From Escherichia coli (GTDB taxonomy: Bacteria; Pseudomonadota; Gammaproteobacteria; Enterobacterales; Enterobacteriaceae), in NCBI RefSeq assembly GCF_001677475.2, contig NZ_CP015229.1: DNA of 64,000 bases; one strand, given 5' to 3'. Made by a program: the position numbers and the translations under genes. Position 1 is the stretch's first letter. Every line of letters starts with the position of its first letter. Below are positions 34,479 to 58,687 of the stretch, piece by piece. The notes beneath the pieces are model-generated. The model was not told where the DNA came from and did not search any database. It saw only the letters and a list, made by a program, of their open reading frames with translations.

Positions 34479-34604
34479 ATTTTTTTAGCTTCATATGCTA
34501 CATTAACTTGCTTGCGTGCTAATGCATTTTCGGTTTATCCTAAACAGGCATCTTAGTAAAATGGATGCCGGGATTGGAACCCCGGATAATGCAAAAGGCG
34601 ACAC

Positions 34605-34627
34605 AGACGCCAAAAGCGTCTTTTTTT
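34605..34627 (+). terminator. strong intrinsic terminator upstream of c4
   Basis: AGACGC-CAAAA-GCGTCT + T7. Confidence 0.7.
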
Positions 34628-34676
34628 GTGTCATGCCATCGCACAGCCATACGTAGCACATAGCTCCGAGATCAAT

Positions 34677-34756
34677 GGTAGTGCTGGCTGGGCTGCCGAA
34701 AGGCAGGCCGGTTCCCTTTTGCGCCGGTAGTTCCAACCCAGTCAGTGCTACCGCCA
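34677..34756 (+). ncRNA. c4: c4 antisense immunity RNA (tRNA-like, RNase P substrate type)
   Basis: 11-bp terminal helix GGTAGTGCTGG/TCAGTGCTACC followed by GCCA; loop GTTCCAACCC complementary to ATTGGAAC at 34573-34580 and 34762-34769 (just upstream of the icd RBS). Confidence 0.65.
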
Positions 34757-34812
34757 TTGAGATTGGAACCTCACGCGGTAGCTCCTTAAATTAGCAAAAG
34801 GAGGCTGCCATT

Positions 34813-51692: not shown

Positions 51693-52590
51693 GCACTGGA
51701 AAAACATTACTATTTATAAACTTTCTCGTGAGGCGGATCTGACCGACTTAGAAGATAAAAAGAAAATGATCCTTTTCACGCCATGCGGTAGTCAGGATAT
51801 GGCCAAGTTCGGTTTTGTATCGCCATTTGGTGATAATTCCGAAGTTATCGCTATGCATGGAAATGGTTTTATCCTTGTTGAAGCAAAGCGCGAAACAAAA
51901 ATTCTTCCCCCGCCGGTTATCCAGCGAGCTATTCAAGAAAAAATTGAAAAACTTGAGCAAGAACAAGCGCGTAAACTGAAGAAAACAGAGAAGGATTCCC
52001 TGAAAGACGAAGTTCTGCATTCTCTTCTGCCACGGGCTTTTTCAAAGTTTTCTGTTATCCAGGCGATCTACGATGGTTCAACTAAACGTATCTATATCAA
52101 TGCCAGCGCGCGGCAGGCAGAGGATATGCTCGCACTTATGCGTAAGTCTCTGGGTTCTCTTCCTGTTGTTCCCCTAAGTGTTGAAAATCCCATTGAATTA
52201 ACGCTGACCGACTGGGTACGTGATGGTAGTGCTCCACAGGGATTTCAAATGGGGGATGCGGCAGAACTTAAGGCAGTGCTTGAGGATGGCGGTATTGCCC
52301 GAGTGAAAAAGCAGGATTTGGGAAGCGATGAAATTTCCACACACCTGGAAGCTGGCAAGCTCGTCACTAAGTTGGCACTCGACTGGCAGAACCGCATTAA
52401 ATTTACACTGGACCATAACTTCAGCCTTACCAGCGTCAAATTTGCGGATGAATTGCTTGAGCAGAACTCTGATATTGATAGTGAAGATGTTGCGCAGCGA
52501 CTGGACGCAGATTTCTTCCTGTTGACCAGTGAAATTTCGTGCCTGGTTGATGCTCTGGTAAATGCCCTTGGCGGAGAGGCTAAGCAGTGA
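51685..52590 (+). CDS. hrdC: RdgC-homolog recombination-associated protein
   Basis: 301 aa; long identical runs to E. coli RdgC ([62 protein letters not shown]). Confidence 0.9.
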
Positions 52591-55500
52591 AAGAGCTGTG
52601 CTATGGATCTGTTTGCAGTGGAATTGAAGCCGCGAGTATTGCCTGGGAACCGTTGGGTATGCGTCCGGCGTGGTTTGCTGAAATCGAGCCTTTTCCATCT
52701 GCCGTTCTTGCGCTCCGCTGGCCCCATGTCGCCAACCTTGGCGACATGACAAAACTTGCCAAAAAAGTCTTGGCTGGGGAAATCGAATCCCCTGACGTGC
52801 TCGTCGGGGGAACACCATGTTTTACCGCGGGGCATATGGTTCTTTGTAAAAATGGTTATAAACCAATAGAAGATGTTTGCCCTGGCGATTACGTAGTCAG
52901 TCATCTCGGGCGGTTACAACAAGTAAAAAGAGTTGGTTCAAAAATAGCTAATACGGGGTTACTTAATGCCGTTGGGCAGCCTTTAGGTATAAGAACAACC
53001 AATGACCATCCCTTCCTGGCTGTTCGGTGGAAAGCCCAAAACACCCGGAAAAATGGCACATATTTTAAGAGAGAGTTGTTGTCTGAACCGGAATGGCGAG
53101 CAGCATGTGATATGCCGGGATATCAATGGTGCGCTCTAACTAATTTCAATATTGCATCTCCAGATATTTGTTCTCGGTTCTTGTCTGAAGAACAGGCTAT
53201 GTATCTTGCGGGCGCTTATGTTGGCGATGGATATATTAGGAGATGGAGAGGTAAATCTAAGAAGGCGGTTGTTTTTGGCATAAATTGCCAGAAATTGAGA
53301 AAGTTTCATTGCCGCATACCAGAAAACATATTTTCCGTGGCAAGCGAAATCCGAGGGAGCATCAAAGTAACCTTGAATGATACGTGTTATGCCAATTGGC
53401 TTAATGAACATTTTGGCGAGTTAAGCCATGCTAAGCGTATCCCTGCATGGGTGATGTCGCATCCATTGCGTCATGTGTTTTTACAAGGCTATCTTGATAC
53501 TGATGGGACACCAAGTGGTAAAGCGGGATTTAGAATTAATAGTGTTAGTCCTGCGCTTGCTTGGGGCGTTGCGGGGTTGTCACAGACTTGTGGTTATGTT
53601 TCTTCGGTCAGCTTTATTGAAGTTGAGCCCAAAAAAGTGATCGAGGATCGCGTGGTAAATCAACGGAATTATTATCAGGTAACAATCTGCCCGCAGAAAT
53701 TGTCACGTAAATCAAGATTGGCTCATGGAATGCTTTTACGAACAGTCAAAGAGTTTAAATCGGTAGGCCTAGATACTGTATACAACATAGAAGTCGAAGG
53801 TGATCATTCCTATATCCTCAATGGTGCGGTGGTCCATAACTGTCAGGCATTCAGTATCGCGGGCTTACGTGGTGGGCTTGATGATGAACGCGGCGCGCTA
53901 ACTTTGAAGTATGTGGAGCTTGCAAATGCAATTGACGACAAACGGTCTGAGTCCTTCCTCAAACCGACAGTTATCGTCTGGGAAAATGTCCCAGGAGTCC
54001 TGTCATCGGCAGATAACGCCTTCGGATGTTTCCTTGCCGGATTGGCTGGAGAAGATGCGCCATTTGAACCAGGTGATCGACCTGAATCAGGAAAAAGTAA
54101 CGCGTTCTGGCGGTGGGATGGCAAAACCGGTTGCCATGCTCCAAAGTGGCCGCAGTGTGGTTGTATTTATGGACCGCAGCGAAAGGTGGCCTGGAGAATC
54201 CTTGATGCCCAATACTTCGGAGTGGCACAACGACGCCGACGCGTGTTTGTTGTCGCAAGTGCTCGAACAGACCTCGATCCCGCAACGGTACTTTTTGAGT
54301 TCGAAGGCGTGCGCCGGAATATTGCGCCGAGCCGAAAAAAGAAGGAAATCGCTTCCGCCATTATTGCAAATGGCGCTGCAATCAGTGGCGAAAGCCTAAA
54401 TCCATGCCTACACGCTGACATGCCACCCGGTATGAAATCGACGAAAGCCGTAAACGCTTTCAGGATGGCGGCATTTGGGGAATATATTGACGATGAAACC
54501 GCATCGACAGTAAAGGCAAGAGATTTTAAAGATGCCACTGACCTTGCCGTTTTTAGCAGCACAGGAGCAGGTTTTTGGTCAGAAGGGCATGGTACATTGC
54601 GGGCACGTGAGCAAGAAAGCCATGAGCATCTTGTTACATTGGCTTTTCCTGAGCGTATGAGCGGTACACAACATGCTGCAACTAAGAATACTTCACCATC
54701 TCTAATGGCTAAAAATCCAACAGCTGTTTGCTATGAAGTAAGAAACGCAGAAGTAGCTGTCCGCCGTCTTACCCCTGTCGAATGTGAAAGGCTGCAAGGT
54801 TTTCCTGATGGGCATACGTTGATCCCGACGGAAAAGCGTAAAAAAGTTAATTCAGATGAACTGGCATATCTTCGCAATCACTATCCAGATTTAAGCGAAG
54901 AAGAGGCCGCGATGCTTGCAGCTGACGGACCGCGTTACAAAGCGATCGGCAATAGTATGGCAATACCAGTAATGCGCTGGATTGGCGATCGGATTACTAA
55001 GGCCGTATGTCGGCAGAAAGAAGGAAGTGAAACAAAAGAGCGAAAAGTTAAACCAGCGGCAGAATTCGAACGGTCCATATTCAAATGGGCTGGTGGAAAA
55101 TTTGGTGTTCTGGAACAAATCTTTCGCTATTTGCCAGAAGGGAAGCGCCTGATTGAACCTTTCGTTGGTGGCGGAGCTGTCTTCATGAATGCCGGATACC
55201 AGGAAAATCTGCTAAATGATGTGAATGCTGACCTGATTAACTTTTACAAGACTCTGCAACGCGAGGCGCATTCACTTATCACTCTGGCACATCGTTTCTT
55301 CCAGGACTACAACACACAGGAAGGATACCTGGCAGTACGGAATGCGTTTAACAAACAAGTCTATGATGATTTACATCGCGCAGCGGCGTTTTTGTTCCTG
55401 AACCGACATTGTTTTAACGGATTGACGCGTTACAACCAGGCCGGTGAGTTCAATGTCGGTTACGGGAAGTATAAAACTCCGTATTTCCCATTACAGGAGA

Positions 55501-55844
55501 TGGAAGCCTTCCTCGGTGCGGAAGGGCGGTCTGAGTTTGTATGCGGTGATTTTGCAGCGGTGATTGAAGCTGCCGGAGAAGGAGATGTCATCTTTTGCGA
55601 TCCGCCGTATGAACCGCTTCCAAATACAGAGGGATTCACGAACTATTCCGGTCATGACTTTAAGTTTGAAGAGCAAAAACGCCTGGTGTCTCTGTTGACG
55701 GATGCTCATCGTCGAGGTGCAAAGGTTCTCATTACTAACAGTGGCGCGCCAAACATCAGAGAGCTTTATCATGACAGTGGCTTCAGAGTGGAACCTCTTT
55801 TTGCCAGACGTTCTGTGTCTTGTAAGGGGACACTCGAGGTGTAG
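52587..55844 (+). CDS. dmt: Dmt: C5-cytosine MTase (N-terminal, intein-interrupted) fused to Dam-type N6-adenine MTase (C-terminal)
   Basis: Motif I SVCSGIE; motif IV split GGTP|C..intein..HN|CQAFSIAG; motif VI VWENVPG; C-terminal half FKWAGGK...EPFVGGGAV...DPPY. Confidence 0.9.
52818..53840 (+). mobile_element. 341-aa class-1 intein with LAGLIDADG homing-endonuclease domain
   Basis: Starts CFTAGHMV (block A), TTNDHPF (block B), [11 protein letters not shown] and [10 protein letters not shown] (LAGLIDADG x2), ends [21 protein letters not shown] followed by +1 Cys. Confidence 0.88.
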
Positions 55845-55863
55845 CTCATGACGTTTTGGGTAT

Positions 55864-55891
55864 ATTGCTCTAATAAATTTATTAGTGTAAT
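55864..55891. promoter_or_regulatory. overlapping inverted C1 operator pair (Op72a/b-like) on the ban-operon promoter
   Basis: ATTGCTCTAATAAATTT 17/17 (55864-55880) and, on the minus strand, ATTACACTAATAAATTT 15/17 (55875-55891); -35 TTGCTC (55866), 17 bp, -10 TAATAT (55889). Confidence 0.85.
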
Positions 55892-55894
55892 ATC

Positions 55895-56080
55895 GCCTCA
55901 ATGAATCGTGATTTATAGAGCGATTTAGCTGTTAGCCGCGACAGGCGCGGCGGTAAGCATGGCTGGGCCTAGTCCTCCCAGACAAACCACCGAGTTGCCA
56001 GGTTGACCATGCGCCTAAGTGGCAACGCCGAAGTGCGTTACGAGCTTCCAGTTTGCCCATCTTCGGGTGGGCGTTTTTTT
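55895..56080 (+). ncRNA. structured leader/sRNA ending in an intrinsic terminator
   Basis: Hairpins 55935-55951, 55963-55981, 55994-56026, then GCCCAT-CTTCGG-GTGGGC + T7 (56055-56080); no credible ORF. Confidence 0.55.
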
Positions 56081-56261
56081 CAGGGTTTTCGTCATAGTTA
56101 GCGACTTTGCGGCGGTTTAGAAACTGACCATTAAAGTAAATGCAAACGATGATCTGATGATGGTAGCGGCCTAAGAAGCCAGATGCCACGGGGTATGAGT
56201 CGTCCCCCGTCAAAAAATCGACCGCAGAGTGTCCCCGTCTGTGTATTAGGGAACGGGGAGG

Positions 56262-56342
56262 CACAACAGGTAAGGGCGCTGGTGTGATTAACCAGATGAA
56301 CGAGAAGGGGCCATCTGTTGGTCAGCGTCCTTTCCTGTTGCG
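56262..56342 (+). ncRNA. structured repeat module A (long terminal helix)
   Basis: CACAACAGGTAAGGGCGCT...AGCGTCCTTTCCTGTTGCG closing helix; internal hairpins TGGT-gtgatta-ACCA and CAGATG...CATCTG. Confidence 0.5.
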
Positions 56343-56545
56343 TTTTCTTTTCAGCGTAACAGCGGTGCTTAACAGCACTTTGGGTACAGTTCCACGAATT
56401 TACGGGTATATCCCGTCATGCTGAAGGCGCTAATCACGCTGGAAGCCAGGGTTGTGCATCCCCTGTTACCGAATTGCAGCCAGGGCGCGGTGCGCCGAAA
56501 AGCATACGGAGGTGGAAGCCCTCGCCGGAGACGTACCCGGCAAGT

Positions 56546-56621
56546 GATGGTGTAGCTCAGCGGTTAGAGCGGTTGACTGTTAATCAACGGGTCGATGGTT
56601 CAAATCCATCCACCATCGCCA
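56546..56621 (+). tRNA. trnA: tRNA-Asn (GTT)
   Basis: Manual cloverleaf: acceptor GATGGTG/CACCATC, D arm GCTC/GAGC, anticodon arm GTTGA-CTGTTAA-TCAAC, T arm GATGG-TTCAAAT-CCATC, encoded CCA. Confidence 0.9.
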
Positions 56622-56623
56622 AT

Positions 56624-56699
56624 GCCGGTTTAGCTCAGTTGGTAGAGCGCCTGCCTTGTAAGCAGGATGTCAGCGGTTCGAGTCCGTTAATCGGCACCA
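56624..56699 (+). tRNA. trnT: tRNA-Thr (TGT)
   Basis: Acceptor GCCGGTT/AATCGGC, anticodon arm CCTGC-CTTGTAA-GCAGG, T arm AGCGG-TTCGAGT-CCGTT, encoded CCA. Confidence 0.9.
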
Positions 56700-56700
56700 G

Positions 56701-56810
56701 CACAACAGGTAAGGGTATTTTGCGACGTCGGAGATCGCCGAGCTTGGCAGAGGGTTCGAATCCCTACGAAGTACCCTTACCGTTGTGATGAATGCGCAGG
56801 CTGATGCGCG
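56701..56810 (+). ncRNA. structured repeat module B (terminal helix with bulged A + perfect T-arm + trailing hairpin)
   Basis: CACAAC(A)GGTAAGGGTA...TACCCTTACCGTTGTG; internal AGGG-TTCGAAT-CCCT; trailing GCGCA-ggctga-TGCGC; starts 2 nt after tRNA-Thr. Confidence 0.55.
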
Positions 56811-56915
56811 AAAGACATTGCAGCTATTGCGGAAAAGAGCTGTTCGGCGGGGCAATTAAACGCCCGTGAGAGTCTGAAATAACCGCAAGCCGGAGATCAG
56901 CACCGGTCATCACAA

Positions 56916-56983
56916 CACAACAGGTAAGGGCATTCTCCCTTATGGGGCTTGGCTTAAATGCATCGAGTGCTCTTACCGTTGTG
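56916..56983 (+). ncRNA. structured repeat module C
   Basis: CACAAC(A)GGTAAGGGCATTC...GAGTGCTCTTACCGTTGTG closing helix with the same bulged A. Confidence 0.5.
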
Positions 56984-57119
56984 ATGAAGTGCAGCTCTTT
57001 GAAGCAACCAGAAGATAAGCATCTGGCTTCACAACATAAACCGCAGGAACGACCAATAAACGGTAGTCCGTATGGAGAACACCCCGTTGAGGAAGAGGCC
57101 TGGCCGGAACCGTAACCGG

Positions 57120-57240
57120 CACTACAACGTTGAGAACACTGGCGTAACGGGGTCATATCCCAATCTACGAATAAATGTTGCGTTGCAGCGTGACAACCAG
57201 TGTTCTCAACATTGTGGTGAATGCACAGGCTGATGTGCCG
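57120..57240 (+). ncRNA. structured repeat module D
   Basis: ACAACGTTGAGAACACTGG...CCAGTGTTCTCAACATTGTGG helix; internal GGG-TCATAT-CCC AATCTAC; trailing GCACA-ggctga-TGTGC (compensatory relative to B). Confidence 0.5.
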
Positions 57241-57396
57241 CAACTACAGTAGTGCGCGCTTTGCGGGGCTTGCTACAACCCTGTGTCGGAGTTCAGCACC
57301 GACCATCACAGTTTGATTCTCTGGCATGAGCATAACGCTGAAATAAGTCCAGTCTGGTGCGGCCCGATCACCCGCCGTTAGCTCCACGAAACGGAG

Positions 57397-57496
57397 CACG
57401 TAACAGGTAAGAGCATTCTCCTGTAACGGGTTCATATCCCAATCTACAGGTCCACCAGGAATGCTCTTTCCGTTGCGGTGAATGCGGCTAAGCGCA
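57397..57496 (+). ncRNA. structured repeat module E
   Basis: CACGTAAC(A)GGTAAGAGCATTC...GAATGCTCTTTCCGTTGCGGTG helix; internal CCTGTA-ac GGG-TTCATAT-CCC aatc-TACAGG; trailing TGCG-gctaag-CGCA. Confidence 0.5.
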
Positions 57497-57626
57497 CGCG
57501 GGGAAATGGTTATATCTGTCCATTATTTCTCCTTATTTCCCCGTCCACGGTGGATAACCAGCCAAAGGACACCGGGAGGCACCCGGCACCGCAACCTTAT
57601 TTCCCAACCAGTAATGAGGTTAATAA

Positions 57627-58052
57627 ATGCTCGGTATTCTCAAAAAGAAATTCCGCAAAGCGGCTGGCGGAGTCAAGAAGATGGAAAACCGTGATGCGGT
57701 GGAAGCGACTGTCTGGGGCGCATATTCCATTGCATACTCTGACGGCACCTGCGATGCGAAAGAAATTGCAGTATTGGAAAAAACCATTGCAGCACTTCCT
57801 GCCTTTGCGCCGTTCTCCGGTGAAATTGCCCAGATGAGCGCCAATATTCGCGCTCAATATGAAGCCTCGCCGCGCCGAGCGAATGCCCAGGCTTTACGTG
57901 AACTGGCTGACGTGTCTGGAACTAATGATGCGGTAGATGTTCTGTGCCTATGCATTGATATTGCTGACCAGGATGGCATTGGGGCAGAAGAGCAGGAGCA
58001 ATTGAAGAAAATTGCCCAGGCTCTTCAATTGCCACTGGAACAGTATATCTGA
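57627..58052 (+). CDS. tciA: TerB-domain protein TciA
   Basis: 141 aa; TerB-like features (AY.IA.SDG..D..E...L...I; DGI...E...L..IA..L). Confidence 0.7.
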   Translation: MLGILKKKFRKAAGGVKKMENRDAVEATVWGAYSIAYSDGTCDAKEIAVLEKTIAALPAFAPFSGEIAQMSANIRAQYEASPRRANAQALRELADVSGTNDAVDVLCLCIDIADQDGIGAEEQEQLKKIAQALQLPLEQYI

Positions 58053-58216
58053 TGGTTATAAAAGCACGTCTAATTCTGGCTTTGGTTTTTCTCGTGCTAT
58101 CTGTGCTGGTGGATTTCACCAGCACAATCCTGTCGGTTTTATCCGACGGGGCGTTGGTAGCAGTAGCTGTAACATTGGTATGGCCGATATTTAAACCAGC
58201 CTCGAAGGATCAGTGA
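58052..58216 (+). CDS. small 2-TM membrane protein (tciB slot; below the ORF-track cutoff)
   Basis: Hand translation: MVIKARLILALVFLVLSVLVDFTSTILSVLSDGALVAVAVTLVWPIFKPASKDQ; start overlaps the tciA stop. Confidence 0.5.
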   Translation: MVIKARLILALVFLVLSVLVDFTSTILSVLSDGALVAVAVTLVWPIFKPASKDQ

Positions 58217-58323
58217 TGAGCTTCTGGGATTTTGCAGATAAGTATCCAATTGTTCTCATTATCATTGTTGCCATAGTTGTAGGCGGTATTGTTAGCGCCA
58301 TTGAAGCACTTAGGAAACAGTAA
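58216..58323 (+). CDS. small 1-TM membrane protein (tciC slot; below the ORF-track cutoff)
   Basis: Hand translation: MSFWDFADKYPIVLIIIVAIVVGGIVSAIEALRKQ; TGATG overlap with the previous ORF. Confidence 0.5.
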   Translation: MSFWDFADKYPIVLIIIVAIVVGGIVSAIEALRKQ

Positions 58324-58326
58324 TCC

Positions 58327-58402
58327 GGCCCTTTAGCTCAGTGGTTAGAGCTGGCGACTCATAATCGCACGGTCACCGGTTCAAGTCCGGTAGGGGCCAC
58401 CA
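58327..58402 (+). tRNA. trnI: tRNA with CAT anticodon, Ile2 (lysidine) type
   Basis: Cloverleaf with acceptor GGCCCTT/AGGGGCC, loop CTCATAA, T arm ACCGG-TTCAAGT-CCGGT, CCA; closely resembles E. coli ileX as I recall it. Confidence 0.85.
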
Positions 58403-58687
58403 TATTTGGTTGTAACACGGCGTCTGGCACATGCGTCGTTAGCGGTCTGGTAACGTTAAAGGGGTTACCTTTTCCCCTAGCTCAGGCAACAAACCAGGTA
58501 GCCGAAATGTGCAAGTCACCGTTGGAGGGATAGCGGATACAGGGACTCACCATCCTGGCGATTCGGTGTGACAGCCGGGAAGAGTCCGGCGCATTAATCC
58601 TGATTTTCTGGTGATGACTCATATCGTTAGGAGTGATTTGAGTATGCCGATTATATCTGACATTCAGCACGCCTGGGTGGAGTGCTA

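Follow-up and report, generated by a model that had tools for sequence, protein, structure and literature searches.

The question raised by this locus is whether the DNA between the operator pair of the ban operon and the tciA gene of a P1-like phage encodes proteins or RNA. The locus is part of a stretch of 64,000 nucleotides (nt) from Escherichia coli (contig NZ_CP015229.1, assembly GCF_001677475.2), here called the window. The window contains a P1-like phage with 99.4% identity to phage JL22. In the P1 reference (NC_005856) the interval is annotated with a 'dicF-like region' and with two small genes, plp and upl, both on the minus strand. An initial annotation of the window had named these genes correctly, and had proposed an array of five structured RNA modules, A to E, on the plus strand. 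The modules are confirmed here. They are plus strand RNA hairpin cassettes, called long-helix (LH) cassettes below, in which a conserved closing stem surrounds an exchangeable, structured cargo. The DNA annotated as two small P1 genes is thus most likely an RNA operon.

All five modules fold with terminal helices (Table 1), with minimum free energy z-scores from -4.3 to about -8.0; none of 200 shuffles folds as well. In each of them the plus strand RNA exceeds its complement in stability by 6-10 kcal/mol. The closing helix of A, B, C and E is CACAAC(A)GGTAAGRG... / ...CYCTTWCCGTTGYG. The plan of the stem is 19-23 base pairs (bp) with an outer CACAAC/GUUGUG part, a bulged A and an inner GGUAAGAGCAUU/AGUGCUCUUUCC part with a conserved U.G pair. 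This helix had been thought to close every module. Cassette D departs from it: in place of a copy of the CACAACAGG helix it has a different, analogous 23-nt inverted repeat that is 91% complementary. The bulged A is present in B, C and E and is paired by an additional T in A, as predicted and as seen both in the sequence and in the folds. It corresponds to column 7 of the family alignment described below.

The cargos differ between the cassettes. Cassette A, closed by CACAACAGGTAAGGGCGCTG / CAGCGTCCTTTCCTGTTGCG, holds a hairpin CTGG-TGTGATTAA-CCAG that resembles a conserved loop of the RNA core directly upstream. Cassette B starts 2 nt past the CCA end of tRNA-Thr and has a tRNA-like cargo, a D-arm-like hairpin (GCGA...TCGC) followed by the perfect T-arm AGGGTTCGAATCCCT that had been noticed earlier, with neither an anticodon arm nor a CCA. 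The cargo of C is CCCTTATGGGG plus CTTGGCTTAAATGCA, that of D is GGGGTCATATCCCAATCTAC plus a second hairpin and that of E is GGGTTCATATCCCAATCTAC; the hairpin CCGTTAGCTCCACGAAACGG upstream of the last is also kept 5' of LH cassettes in other phages. The motif reported to be shared by D, E and a spacer site is found as GGGKTCATATCCCAATCTAC in D and E (repeat family D5, 96% identity) and as GGGTATATCCC at ~56394.

The outer GTTGTG / CACAAC hexamers (56782-56787, 56911-56921 and equivalents) have two pairing options, one within an LH cassette and the other across the intervening tRNA-like unit as a helix of 9-10 bp, GTTGTGATGA / TCATCACAAC. Judged from these predicted structures, neighbouring units would compete for the shared junction bases or stack on them.

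Table 1. Plus strand features between the dicF-like region and tciA, in window coordinates.
Feature	Position	Strand	Evidence
dicF-like region with intrinsic terminator at its end	55988-56080	+	NC_005856 annotation and terminator scan
tmRNA-like core, 5' segment	56083-56120	+	blocks complementary to E. coli tmRNA
tmRNA-like core, A-rich resume context and tag frame	56121-56174	+	31 nucleotide versions; weak tmRNA_permuted match
tmRNA-like core, structured 3' half	56154-56260	+	alignment pairing; P1 coordinates read by hand
LH cassette A	56262-56342	+	fold, -37.9 kcal/mol, z -4.7
Spacer with small hairpins including ACGGGTATATCCCGT at ~56392-56406	56343-56545	+	sequence reading
tRNA-Asn	56546-56621	+	tRNA call
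tRNA-Thr	56624-56699	+	tRNA call
LH cassette B	56701-56787	+	fold, -40.3 kcal/mol, z about -6.0
tRNA-like unit tRL-1	56782-56916	+	fold and homology to lambdoid pL-leader DNA
LH cassette C	56916-56983	+	fold, z -5.8; cargo conservation
tRNA-like unit tRL-2, short	56978-57035	+	repeat family D2
LH cassette D	57120-57219	+	fold, -47.9 kcal/mol, z about -8; inverted repeat I1
tRNA-like unit tRL-3	57214-57309	+	fold
LH cassette E	57397-57479	+	fold, z -4.3; cargo conservation
tRNA-like unit tRL-4, STnc100-like	57472-57595	+	Rfam STnc100 match; directly upstream of tciA

Conservation of the cassettes follows the RNA. A scan of the window, of P1 relatives and of IMG/VR loci, using a 5' anchor and the best downstream partner, gave 135 array-strand LH cassettes. 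Distinct helices and distinct interiors each number 51, and the interiors are 25-458 nt long. When 36 different stems were aligned over 19 helix pairs, 96.2% of the cells were paired, compared with 36-62% in slid controls, a percentage that is inflated by the choice of arms for complementarity, which leaves the compensatory variety unaffected. Seven of the 19 pairs were changed on both sides, and the covariation score was reached by none of 500 shuffles. The stems also share conserved oddities: the bulged A, the U.G pair in 28 of the 36 rows and, in 20 of them, a U.U mismatch. Read on the other strand, the alignment's 59 wobble cells would be C.A mismatches. Covarying helices, G.U pairs and the greater stability of the strand that carries the tRNAs support the proposal of conservation at the RNA level. 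No Rfam family was found for the LH cassettes in scans at gathering threshold and at E<=10, in which the modules gave only spurious matches to miRNA-precursor hairpins. A tRNA identity of the modules did not hold: none matched a tRNA model (RF00005) at E<=10, ARAGORN called only tRNA-Asn, tRNA-Thr and tRNA-Met, and its relaxed search (80%) added only a dubious tRNA-Tyr overlapping tRNA-Thr and module B.

The initial annotation did not include the family across unrelated phages, with its conserved stems and exchangeable conserved cargos, nor the tmRNA-like element 5' of A or the relative of STnc100 at the other end. In lambdoid phages such as mEp460 and Stx2a_1447 the leader that runs from cI/pL to the first early-left gene has a segment 98% identical to positions 56781-56917 of the window, and analogous long-helix modules with quite different interiors stand on either side of it. 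Parts of the system are also present in the T1-like phage swi2, in Ackermannviridae (Magnus, Vi01) and in E. coli O157 typing phage 10 (phiV10-type). Cargo C is invariant in more than 120 viral contigs and is found inside another closing helix in Suspvirus. The D/E motif, GGGNTCATAWCCCAATCYA, likewise occurs in more than 120 viral contigs, with many and compensated closing helices (ACAAAACAGAGAAGAGCA..., CACAACAGAAAAGGGCA..., CAACACACAAGAGCA...), and in lambdoid phages it lies directly 5' of the ribosome-binding site of the first pL gene. Homologous interiors (loci L111 and L063) have compensatory changes of their own, T-arm-like hairpins recur in several cargos, and interiors can be wholly different between near-identical phages. 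The conservation of the cargos and their movement between stems indicate that the stems serve as a shared frame and that each interior is a functional unit by itself. In one IMG/VR contig (L115, 2778261692_000003) the cassette after the core has an interior with CCTGACGAG-tccatgaggga-CGAAAC, which corresponds, by motif only, to the conserved core motifs of the hammerhead ribozyme.

The association with tRNA genes is equally regular. Every one of the 189 tRNAs in the collected loci has the orientation of the array, and 39 of the 135 cassettes start 2 nt past the end of an upstream tRNA, with tRNA-like units following the cassettes. In typing phage 10 the LH 3' arm overlaps the first 3 nt of a tRNA-Arg, which stands directly after the cassette in the position held by a tRNA-like unit in mEp460. 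Phages D6 and P7 have a tRNA-Ser(UGA) in the stretch that replaces 57236-57461 of the window (P7 ~1900-1986, D6 ~2107-2193), with a T-arm-like hairpin and CACAAC junction on one side and an LH-like cassette on the other. In Ro157c2YLVW (L005, 1377-1463) a tRNA-Tyr lies between tRNA-Asn and tRNA-Thr.

Comparison of the window with the P1 reference, P7, D6, SJ46 and Ro157c2YLVW showed that the ends of insertions and deletions fall in repeated arms or motifs. The window has about 174 bases more than the P1 reference (56793-56965), which lacks the stretch from the cassette-B hairpin through cassette C by recombination between CTTACCGTTGTGATGAA repeats. SJ46 (L006, ~1640-1790) has a D/E hybrid cassette with mismatched arms, recombined within a 25-nt GTAACGGGKTCATATCCCAATCTAC repeat. 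The repeated stem sequences are the sites of homologous recombination by which cassettes are swapped between phages, lost or duplicated.

Between the cassettes are units that fold as cloverleaves. They have an acceptor-like helix GUUGUGRUGA / UCAYCACAAC, a D-like hairpin with the loop GGCUGA, a variable centre and a T-like hairpin with the loop AGAUCAGCA and three compensated stems. In tRL-1, the unit with 98% identity to lambdoid pL-leader DNA, the acceptor-like helix is GTTGTGATG / CATCACAAC, the D-arm-like hairpin is at 56794-56809 (GCGCA-GGCTGA-TGCGC) and the T-arm-like one at 56889-56905. In tRL-3 these are GTGGTG / CATCAC, 57223-57238 (GCACA-GGCTGA-TGTGC) and ~57285-57303, and tRL-2 has only a T-arm-like hairpin CCAGA-AGATAAGCA-TCTGG and the CTTCACAAC junction. 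The two GGCTGA hairpins had been described as hairpins that follow B and D with compensated stems, GCGCA/TGCGC and GCACA/TGTGC. The stems are as described, and a third compensated version (TCGCA/TGCGA) is found in phage D6; the hairpins are D-arm-like parts of separate tRNA-like units. A G3:U70 pair and a conserved CCA were not found in these units. The last unit, tRL-4, has the outer helix GTTGCGGTG / CACCGCAAC and matches STnc100 (RF02076) with 39.2 bits (E 1.5e-6, gathering threshold 47) over model positions 31-147 only. Its homologues score 43.0 bits in P7, 39.6 in D6 and 38.0 in Ro157c2YLVW.

The array extends past the 56262-57496 first described, upstream to ~56083 and downstream to ~57595. 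Its upstream part, directly 5' of cassette A, is an apparently undescribed RNA that resembles transfer-messenger RNA (tmRNA) and encodes a tag. The tag frame, GCA AAC GAT GAT CTG ATG ATG GTA GCG GCC TAA (56142-56174), is preceded by AAAGTAAAT and reads ANDDLMMVAA*; in Felix O1-like phages the tag is ANDNVFLAVA. In 128 copies the frame gives 17 peptide variants, all of the form A-N-[DE]-[DEN]-x-x-[LM]-x-[AV]-A and a stop; one ends in P. Distinct nucleotide versions of the frame number 31, each with ten codons and a stop. GCC, GCG, GCT and GCA are all used for the last Ala, and TAA, TAG or TGA for the stop. The pattern is characteristic of a decoded tmRNA tag such as ANDENYALAA. In the resume context both critical bases, U-5 and A-4, are present. 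An H5-like stem around the stop codon is followed by an H-type pseudoknot, in P1 with stem 1 formed by 56188-56193 and 56205-56210 and stem 2 by 56199-56202 and 56219-56222. The structure was specified by hand, RNAalifold being unhelpful (pseudoknot, alignment register). In the core alignment (A2) 96.4% of the cells were paired, with 33-54% in slid controls, and 9 of 13 pairs were changed on both sides; in the P1 type pseudoknot stem 2 is compensated in full, at each of its four pairs. A hairpin at 56233-56258 in P1 (loop CTGTGTATTAGGGA) is the analogue of a family hairpin with the conserved loop GGTGTGATTAATAA on four different, covarying stems. The single-stranded loop of cargo C (56950-56964, CTTGGCTTAAATGCA) holds the 8-mer TAAATGCA, which recurs in the core at the resume context and resume codon (56135-56144); this could be mimicry or chance.

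The core matches 684 GenBank phage records, among them Felix O1-like, Suspvirus, Vi01-like, T1-like, N4-like Bp4 and P1 phages; a scan of species-representative genomes gave three loci only. Among the GenBank matches listed the features under the core were 'none' or 'hypothetical protein', with no RNA annotation, and no RNA feature was found under it among the matches listed in RefSeq E. coli genomes. Some copies have a sigma-70 promoter of their own and start at the antisense segment. On a Pantoea contig the core, an LH cassette, a tRNA-like unit, a hairpin and a terminator form a self-contained unit. No Rfam family corresponds to the core: tmRNA_permuted aligns the tag stretch with 24.1 bits (gathering threshold 47) and beta_tmRNA gives 13.5 (84). 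The tag peptides were absent from the searched literature. Papers on the tmRNA database contained no enterobacterial phage tmRNA, and the phage ones named are those of mycobacteriophages and Bacillus phage G only.

A tRNA-like domain for the core (G3:U70 acceptor, T-arm, 3' CCA) was not found when LH stems and tRNA-like units were inspected by eye, and ARAGORN made no call on the core at its default and 90% thresholds. At 80% it called a 'permuted tmRNA' with the correct tag, the domain of which was rejected for its implausible flanks. The LH stem itself was also rejected as the domain: its conserved wobble is U(5').G(3'), and the CCA of '..CCACAAC' is not conserved, P1 having AUCACAAC. An inside-out pairing of the upstream LH 3' arm with the downstream LH 5' arm around the core would yield a G3.U70 pair, but the upstream arm is missing from those copies that have a promoter of their own. 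In Vi01 (L138, ~1225-1355) and Magnus (L010, ~2130-2265) an unannotated tRNA-like RNA of ~130 nt lies downstream of the core, with the acceptor-like helix GCCGTTA / AAACGGC, the T-arm GGGTTCGACTCCC and an encoded U-CCA end.

The best BLAST matches between E. coli ssrA, the tmRNA gene, and the cores were on the opposite strand, at ssrA nt 68-106, a stretch that runs from the 3' strand of pseudoknot PK1 through the A-rich region upstream of the tag and the resume codon to the fifth tag codon. In all, the complementarity takes in nt ~64-108. The P1 blocks GTTTTCGTC / GCGAC / TTTGCGG are complementary to nt ~64-106, and the most conserved 5' blocks of the family, (GA)UAGUUUUCGUC / GCGAC / UUUGCGG-UUUUUA, are the ssrA-complementary part. 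For 73 variants the mean duplex energy with ssrA 51-125 was -36.5 kcal/mol, compared with -18 to -23 kcal/mol for non-overlapping ssrA windows and -21.5 for their own downstream sequence. The Felix O1 and Suspvirus lineages retain UAGUUUUCGU plus GCGUCUAUUUUGC, which cover an A-rich stretch lost in other lineages, and their optimal ssrA site is again nt 76-107. The phage tag frames have GAU GAU, GAA GAA or GAU AAU where the host has GAC GAA AAC, so that the core RNA does not pair with itself. The observed energy was reached by 0 of 300, 0 of 300 and 0 of 250 shuffles in three lineages, by 5-21 of 250-300 in the others and by 9 of 300 for P1 alone. The BLAST match of ssrA to the P1 window alone was not significant (E 3.4, tied with chance matches), so the complementarity is claimed for the family and not for P1 alone. 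With these moderate statistics, an antisense relation of the core to host tmRNA is judged likely, at a chance slightly better than even.

Several functions can be considered for such an array. We favour, tentatively and at somewhat less than an even chance, the reading that the LH stems serve, in an early non-coding RNA operon, as insulators and as processing sites of the RNase III type, and that they present cargo RNAs or set them free. The cassettes would be spacers and carriers in a long untranslated early RNA, in P1 the leader of the ban operon, which would open with the tmRNA-like, tag-encoding RNA and continue with cassettes alternating with tRNAs and tRNA-like RNAs. Host RNase III would cut the stems near the bulged-A junction. 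The cut would separate neighbouring tRNA or tRNA-like units, to be finished by RNase P and 3' trimming, and would also free the cargo hairpins as small stable RNAs. Processing cassettes for RNase III or RNase P were among the roles first proposed. The reading is favoured for the length of the stems (19-23 pairs, where RNase III substrates have about 20 bp or more of mostly regular helix), for their place between tRNA and tRNA-like units, abutting tRNA ends, and for an 8-mer, CAGUGCUC, shared by the LH 3' arm CAGUGCUCUUUCC and the 3' strand of the E. coli pre-16S processing stem. In pre-16S RNA RNase III makes its textbook +33 cut 6 nt past the 3' end of CAGUGCUC, and by this analogy the putative cut is placed at the bulged-A junction.

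Several points weigh against processing stems as the explanation. The similarity to pre-16S RNA is one 8-mer with its helix context and could be chance, at roughly a few per cent. RNase III needs no strong conservation of stem sequence, no U.G pair and no U.U mismatch, and their conservation points to a more specific partner. The conserved cargos indicate that the interiors are not neutral loops, so that processing would not be the whole function of the cassettes. The mismatched hybrid of SJ46 suggests that individual helices are dispensable, the alternative GUUGUG/CACAAC pairing makes the fold in vivo ambiguous, and the pairing percentage of the stem alignment is inflated as described above.

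A second reading starts from the core and is possible, though doubtful. The array would be the tail of an RNA with which the phage reprograms trans-translation in its host. The core would dock by its 5' antisense blocks on host tmRNA (nt ~64-108) and offer its own resume context and ten-codon frame. Rescue of stalled ribosomes by host Ala-tmRNA and SmpB would then append a phage-specified tag never ending in LAA, ANDDLMMVAA in P1; the alternative outcome would be a plain block of host tagging. LH cassettes and tRNA-like units would be accessory RNAs, co-transcribed with the core RNA and processed from it or stabilising it. If true, this would be a trans-acting replacement of the tmRNA message without described precedent, in Felix O1-, Vi01-, T1-, N4- and P1-like groups.

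Rather unlikely as the full account, and overlapping with RNase III-type processing, is that the cassettes are scaffolds for display of the cargo. A small structured cargo, such as the T-arm mimic, the CUUGGCUUAAAUGCA loop or the GGGNUCAUAWCCCAAUCYA fold, would be a ligand or a sink for a factor of the host or of a rival phage, and the stem would only stabilise and present this cargo. The candidate targets are a tRNA-processing or tRNA-modifying enzyme, a defence nuclease and SmpB/tmRNA. Cargos conserved across unrelated phages while their stems change by compensation, the independent compensation within homologous interiors and the T-arm-like hairpins of several cargos agree with this idea. 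Complete differences of interior between near-identical phages are the pattern expected of conflict-driven cassettes, and the neighbouring core is apparently aimed at host tmRNA. However, no Rfam family matched, the region is dispensable on laboratory hosts and some interiors may only be decayed tRNA genes.

Anti-termination is improbable as the main function. The LH 3' arm would act as a boxA with the small hairpin 12-14 nt further on, as in nut and rrn sites, and carry RNA polymerase against termination or Rho for more than 1.5 kb to tciA and ban. Compared with boxA (UGCUCUUUA / CGCUCUUA), most LH 3' arms do contain UGCUCUUU or UGCUCUUA and are followed by a hairpin. The 8-mer UGCUCUUU is identical to the boxA core of rrnH, cassette C has the lambda-type GCUCUUA, and the U.U mismatch (20 of 36 rows) retains CUCUUU at the cost of a base pair. 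The lambdoid modules lie in the pL leader, the site of nutL, and the array is long, untranslated and free of plus strand terminators after 56080 in the scan of 55800-58500. The boxA-like sequence is nevertheless base-paired in a stable helix, whereas NusB/S10 bind single-stranded boxA. A good boxA is wanting in A, B and D, five copies would be redundant, and cassettes also occur in short self-contained units with their own promoter and terminator.

Still less probable is a feature of the DNA, either termini like those of miniature inverted-repeat transposable elements or recombination repeats at mosaic boundaries, or interiors that are decaying tRNA genes, with an RNA structure that has no function. 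The breakpoints in the repeats of P1 relatives, the interiors that resemble tRNA remnants with D and T arms and the tolerated SJ46 hybrid could be explained in this way. The strand asymmetry (59 G.U cells and the 6-10 kcal/mol advantage of the plus strand), the conservation of cargo motifs and loops while stems covary and the constant orientation with the tRNAs speak against it. Target-site duplications or flanking direct repeats were not seen in the junctions read, which were not searched systematically. An integron attC site was rejected, its core site not being compatible with GTTGTG / CACAAC.

The other roles first suggested, as Ro/Rsr-binding Y RNAs of the YrlA type or as tRNA mimics that decoy anticodon nucleases, are very unlikely. 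The layout of cassette B, a long terminal helix with a bulge and tRNA-like arms including a T-arm, is like that of a Y RNA, and the modules do lie inside a tRNA operon. The only match to the YrlA model (RF02553) was 25.6 bits (gathering threshold 69) at 56566-56683, which is tRNA-Asn plus tRNA-Thr, and there was none on A-E at E<=10. The order of arms in B is D then T, as in tRNA, without a closed acceptor-like stem, while the YrlA consensus has T-arm, closed acceptor-like stem and D-arm. E. coli K-12, the classical P1 host, is not known to have Rsr, and P1 hosts are not known to offer a Ro/Rsr context. No module has an anticodon arm, which an anticodon nuclease must recognise.

That plp and upl are minus-strand protein-coding genes as annotated in P1 is hardly credible: open reading frames of 139 and 63 amino acids exist, and Upl matches PHROG families, built from the same annotated P1-like frames, but neither protein has a Pfam family, the length and content of plp differ between 99%-identical phages through gain and loss of cassettes by indels at the repeats, the repeats fall in different minus-strand frames (ENALTC twice, YPYLLC once, as first noted), and conservation tracks base pairing on the other strand.

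The setting of the array in the phage is as follows. The dmt gene ends at 55844, and next come the paired C1 operators of the ban operon; tciA begins at 57627, with a CAT-anticodon tRNA at 58327. The interval has one plus strand intrinsic terminator only, with a stem at 56051-56073 and a T-run, immediately 5' of the tmRNA-like core. The scan of 55800-58500 showed no sigma-70-like site. With this strong terminator at the end of the dicF-like region, transcription of the array in P1 must depend on read-through from Pban or on a promoter that was not recognised. In a CRISPR interference screen the region was dispensable for plating and non-essential (PMC10695390), as expected for an accessory RNA locus.

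Three other features of the window were observed. The dmt gene (52587-55844) encodes 1085 amino acids, compared with 754 in the P1 reference; the additional ~330 residues start at a Cys, end in ...VVHNC and look like an intein with a homing-endonuclease insert inside the methyltransferase. At 34548-34758, in the P1 immI region, a C4 antisense RNA is adjacent to an isrK match, a pair also found beside the antirepressor gene in mEp460 and Stx2a_1447. A conserved non-coding element of ~190 nt, without an Rfam match, lies at 58403-58600, 3' of the CAT-anticodon tRNA. It has long invariant blocks, e.g. AACCAGGTAGCCGNAATGTGCAAGTC and GGCGATTCGGT. Homologous sequence opens the pL leaders of mEp460 and Stx2a_1447 and is also present in the phiV10-type typing phage, there upstream of an LH cassette and tRNA-Arg.

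P1 is among the most heavily used phages in genetics, and the array described here is a widespread, unannotated phage non-coding RNA locus. The LH family spans temperate and virulent enterobacterial phages, with no Rfam model and no RNA annotation among the GenBank and RefSeq matches listed. It connects phage tRNA clusters, lambdoid early leaders, the prophage small RNA STnc100 and a tmRNA-like RNA, which had not been linked before, and provides testable candidates for the processing of long untranslated RNAs by phages. Some phages depend on host tmRNA, an old observation. If the link to tmRNA is true, phages would interfere with ribosome rescue and proteolytic tagging or redirect them, which bears on the conflict between phage and host over translation.

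The known relatives of the array are STnc100/PasD for one unit and, by resemblance only, tmRNA for the core. The core shares with tmRNA the U-5/A-4 context, a ten-codon A-N-D/E-...-A-A/V-A tag, a stop codon in an H5-like stem-loop and an H-type pseudoknot. It differs in having no detected tRNA-like domain, in scoring below the thresholds of the tmRNA models (RF00023 / RF04321), in its tags, no variant seen ending in LAA unlike ANDENYALAA, and in a 5' segment that is antisense to host tmRNA. STnc100 is a prophage-encoded small RNA related to PasD, and both are treated as base-pairing small RNAs with seed regions (10.64898/2026.05.13.724894). Here the corresponding unit is embedded in an array and has a predicted cloverleaf-like fold. 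The outer helix of tRL-4 is the same as in STnc100, and the other tRNA-like units share the ends GUUGYGGUGAAUGCG... / ...hairpin-CACCRCAAC; the matches of the tRL-4 type remain below the gathering threshold (38-43 compared with 47 bits), and the LH cassettes have no Rfam counterpart.

The LH cassettes are akin to two known kinds of RNA, the stable RNAs of phage tRNA clusters and RNase III-type stems. Species 1 and 2 of T4 (rnaC and rnaD) are likewise small stable RNAs with paired ends inside a phage tRNA cluster; rnaC has a canonical T-arm. They are single genes with ends of the CCA type and not repeated stem cassettes, and by eye have no convincing sequence similarity to the LH family. Compared with RNase III stems, those of the LH cassettes enclose small exchangeable cargos and not rRNA, are repeated near-identically and have a conserved bulged A and U.G pair, and their cleavage is proposed by analogy only. 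The stems of pre-16S and pre-23S RNA, the T7 early-region sites and the lambda N-leader site are likewise imperfect helices of ~20 bp made by the flanks of a stable RNA in a polycistronic transcript, and the LH modules of lambdoid phages lie in the pL leader.

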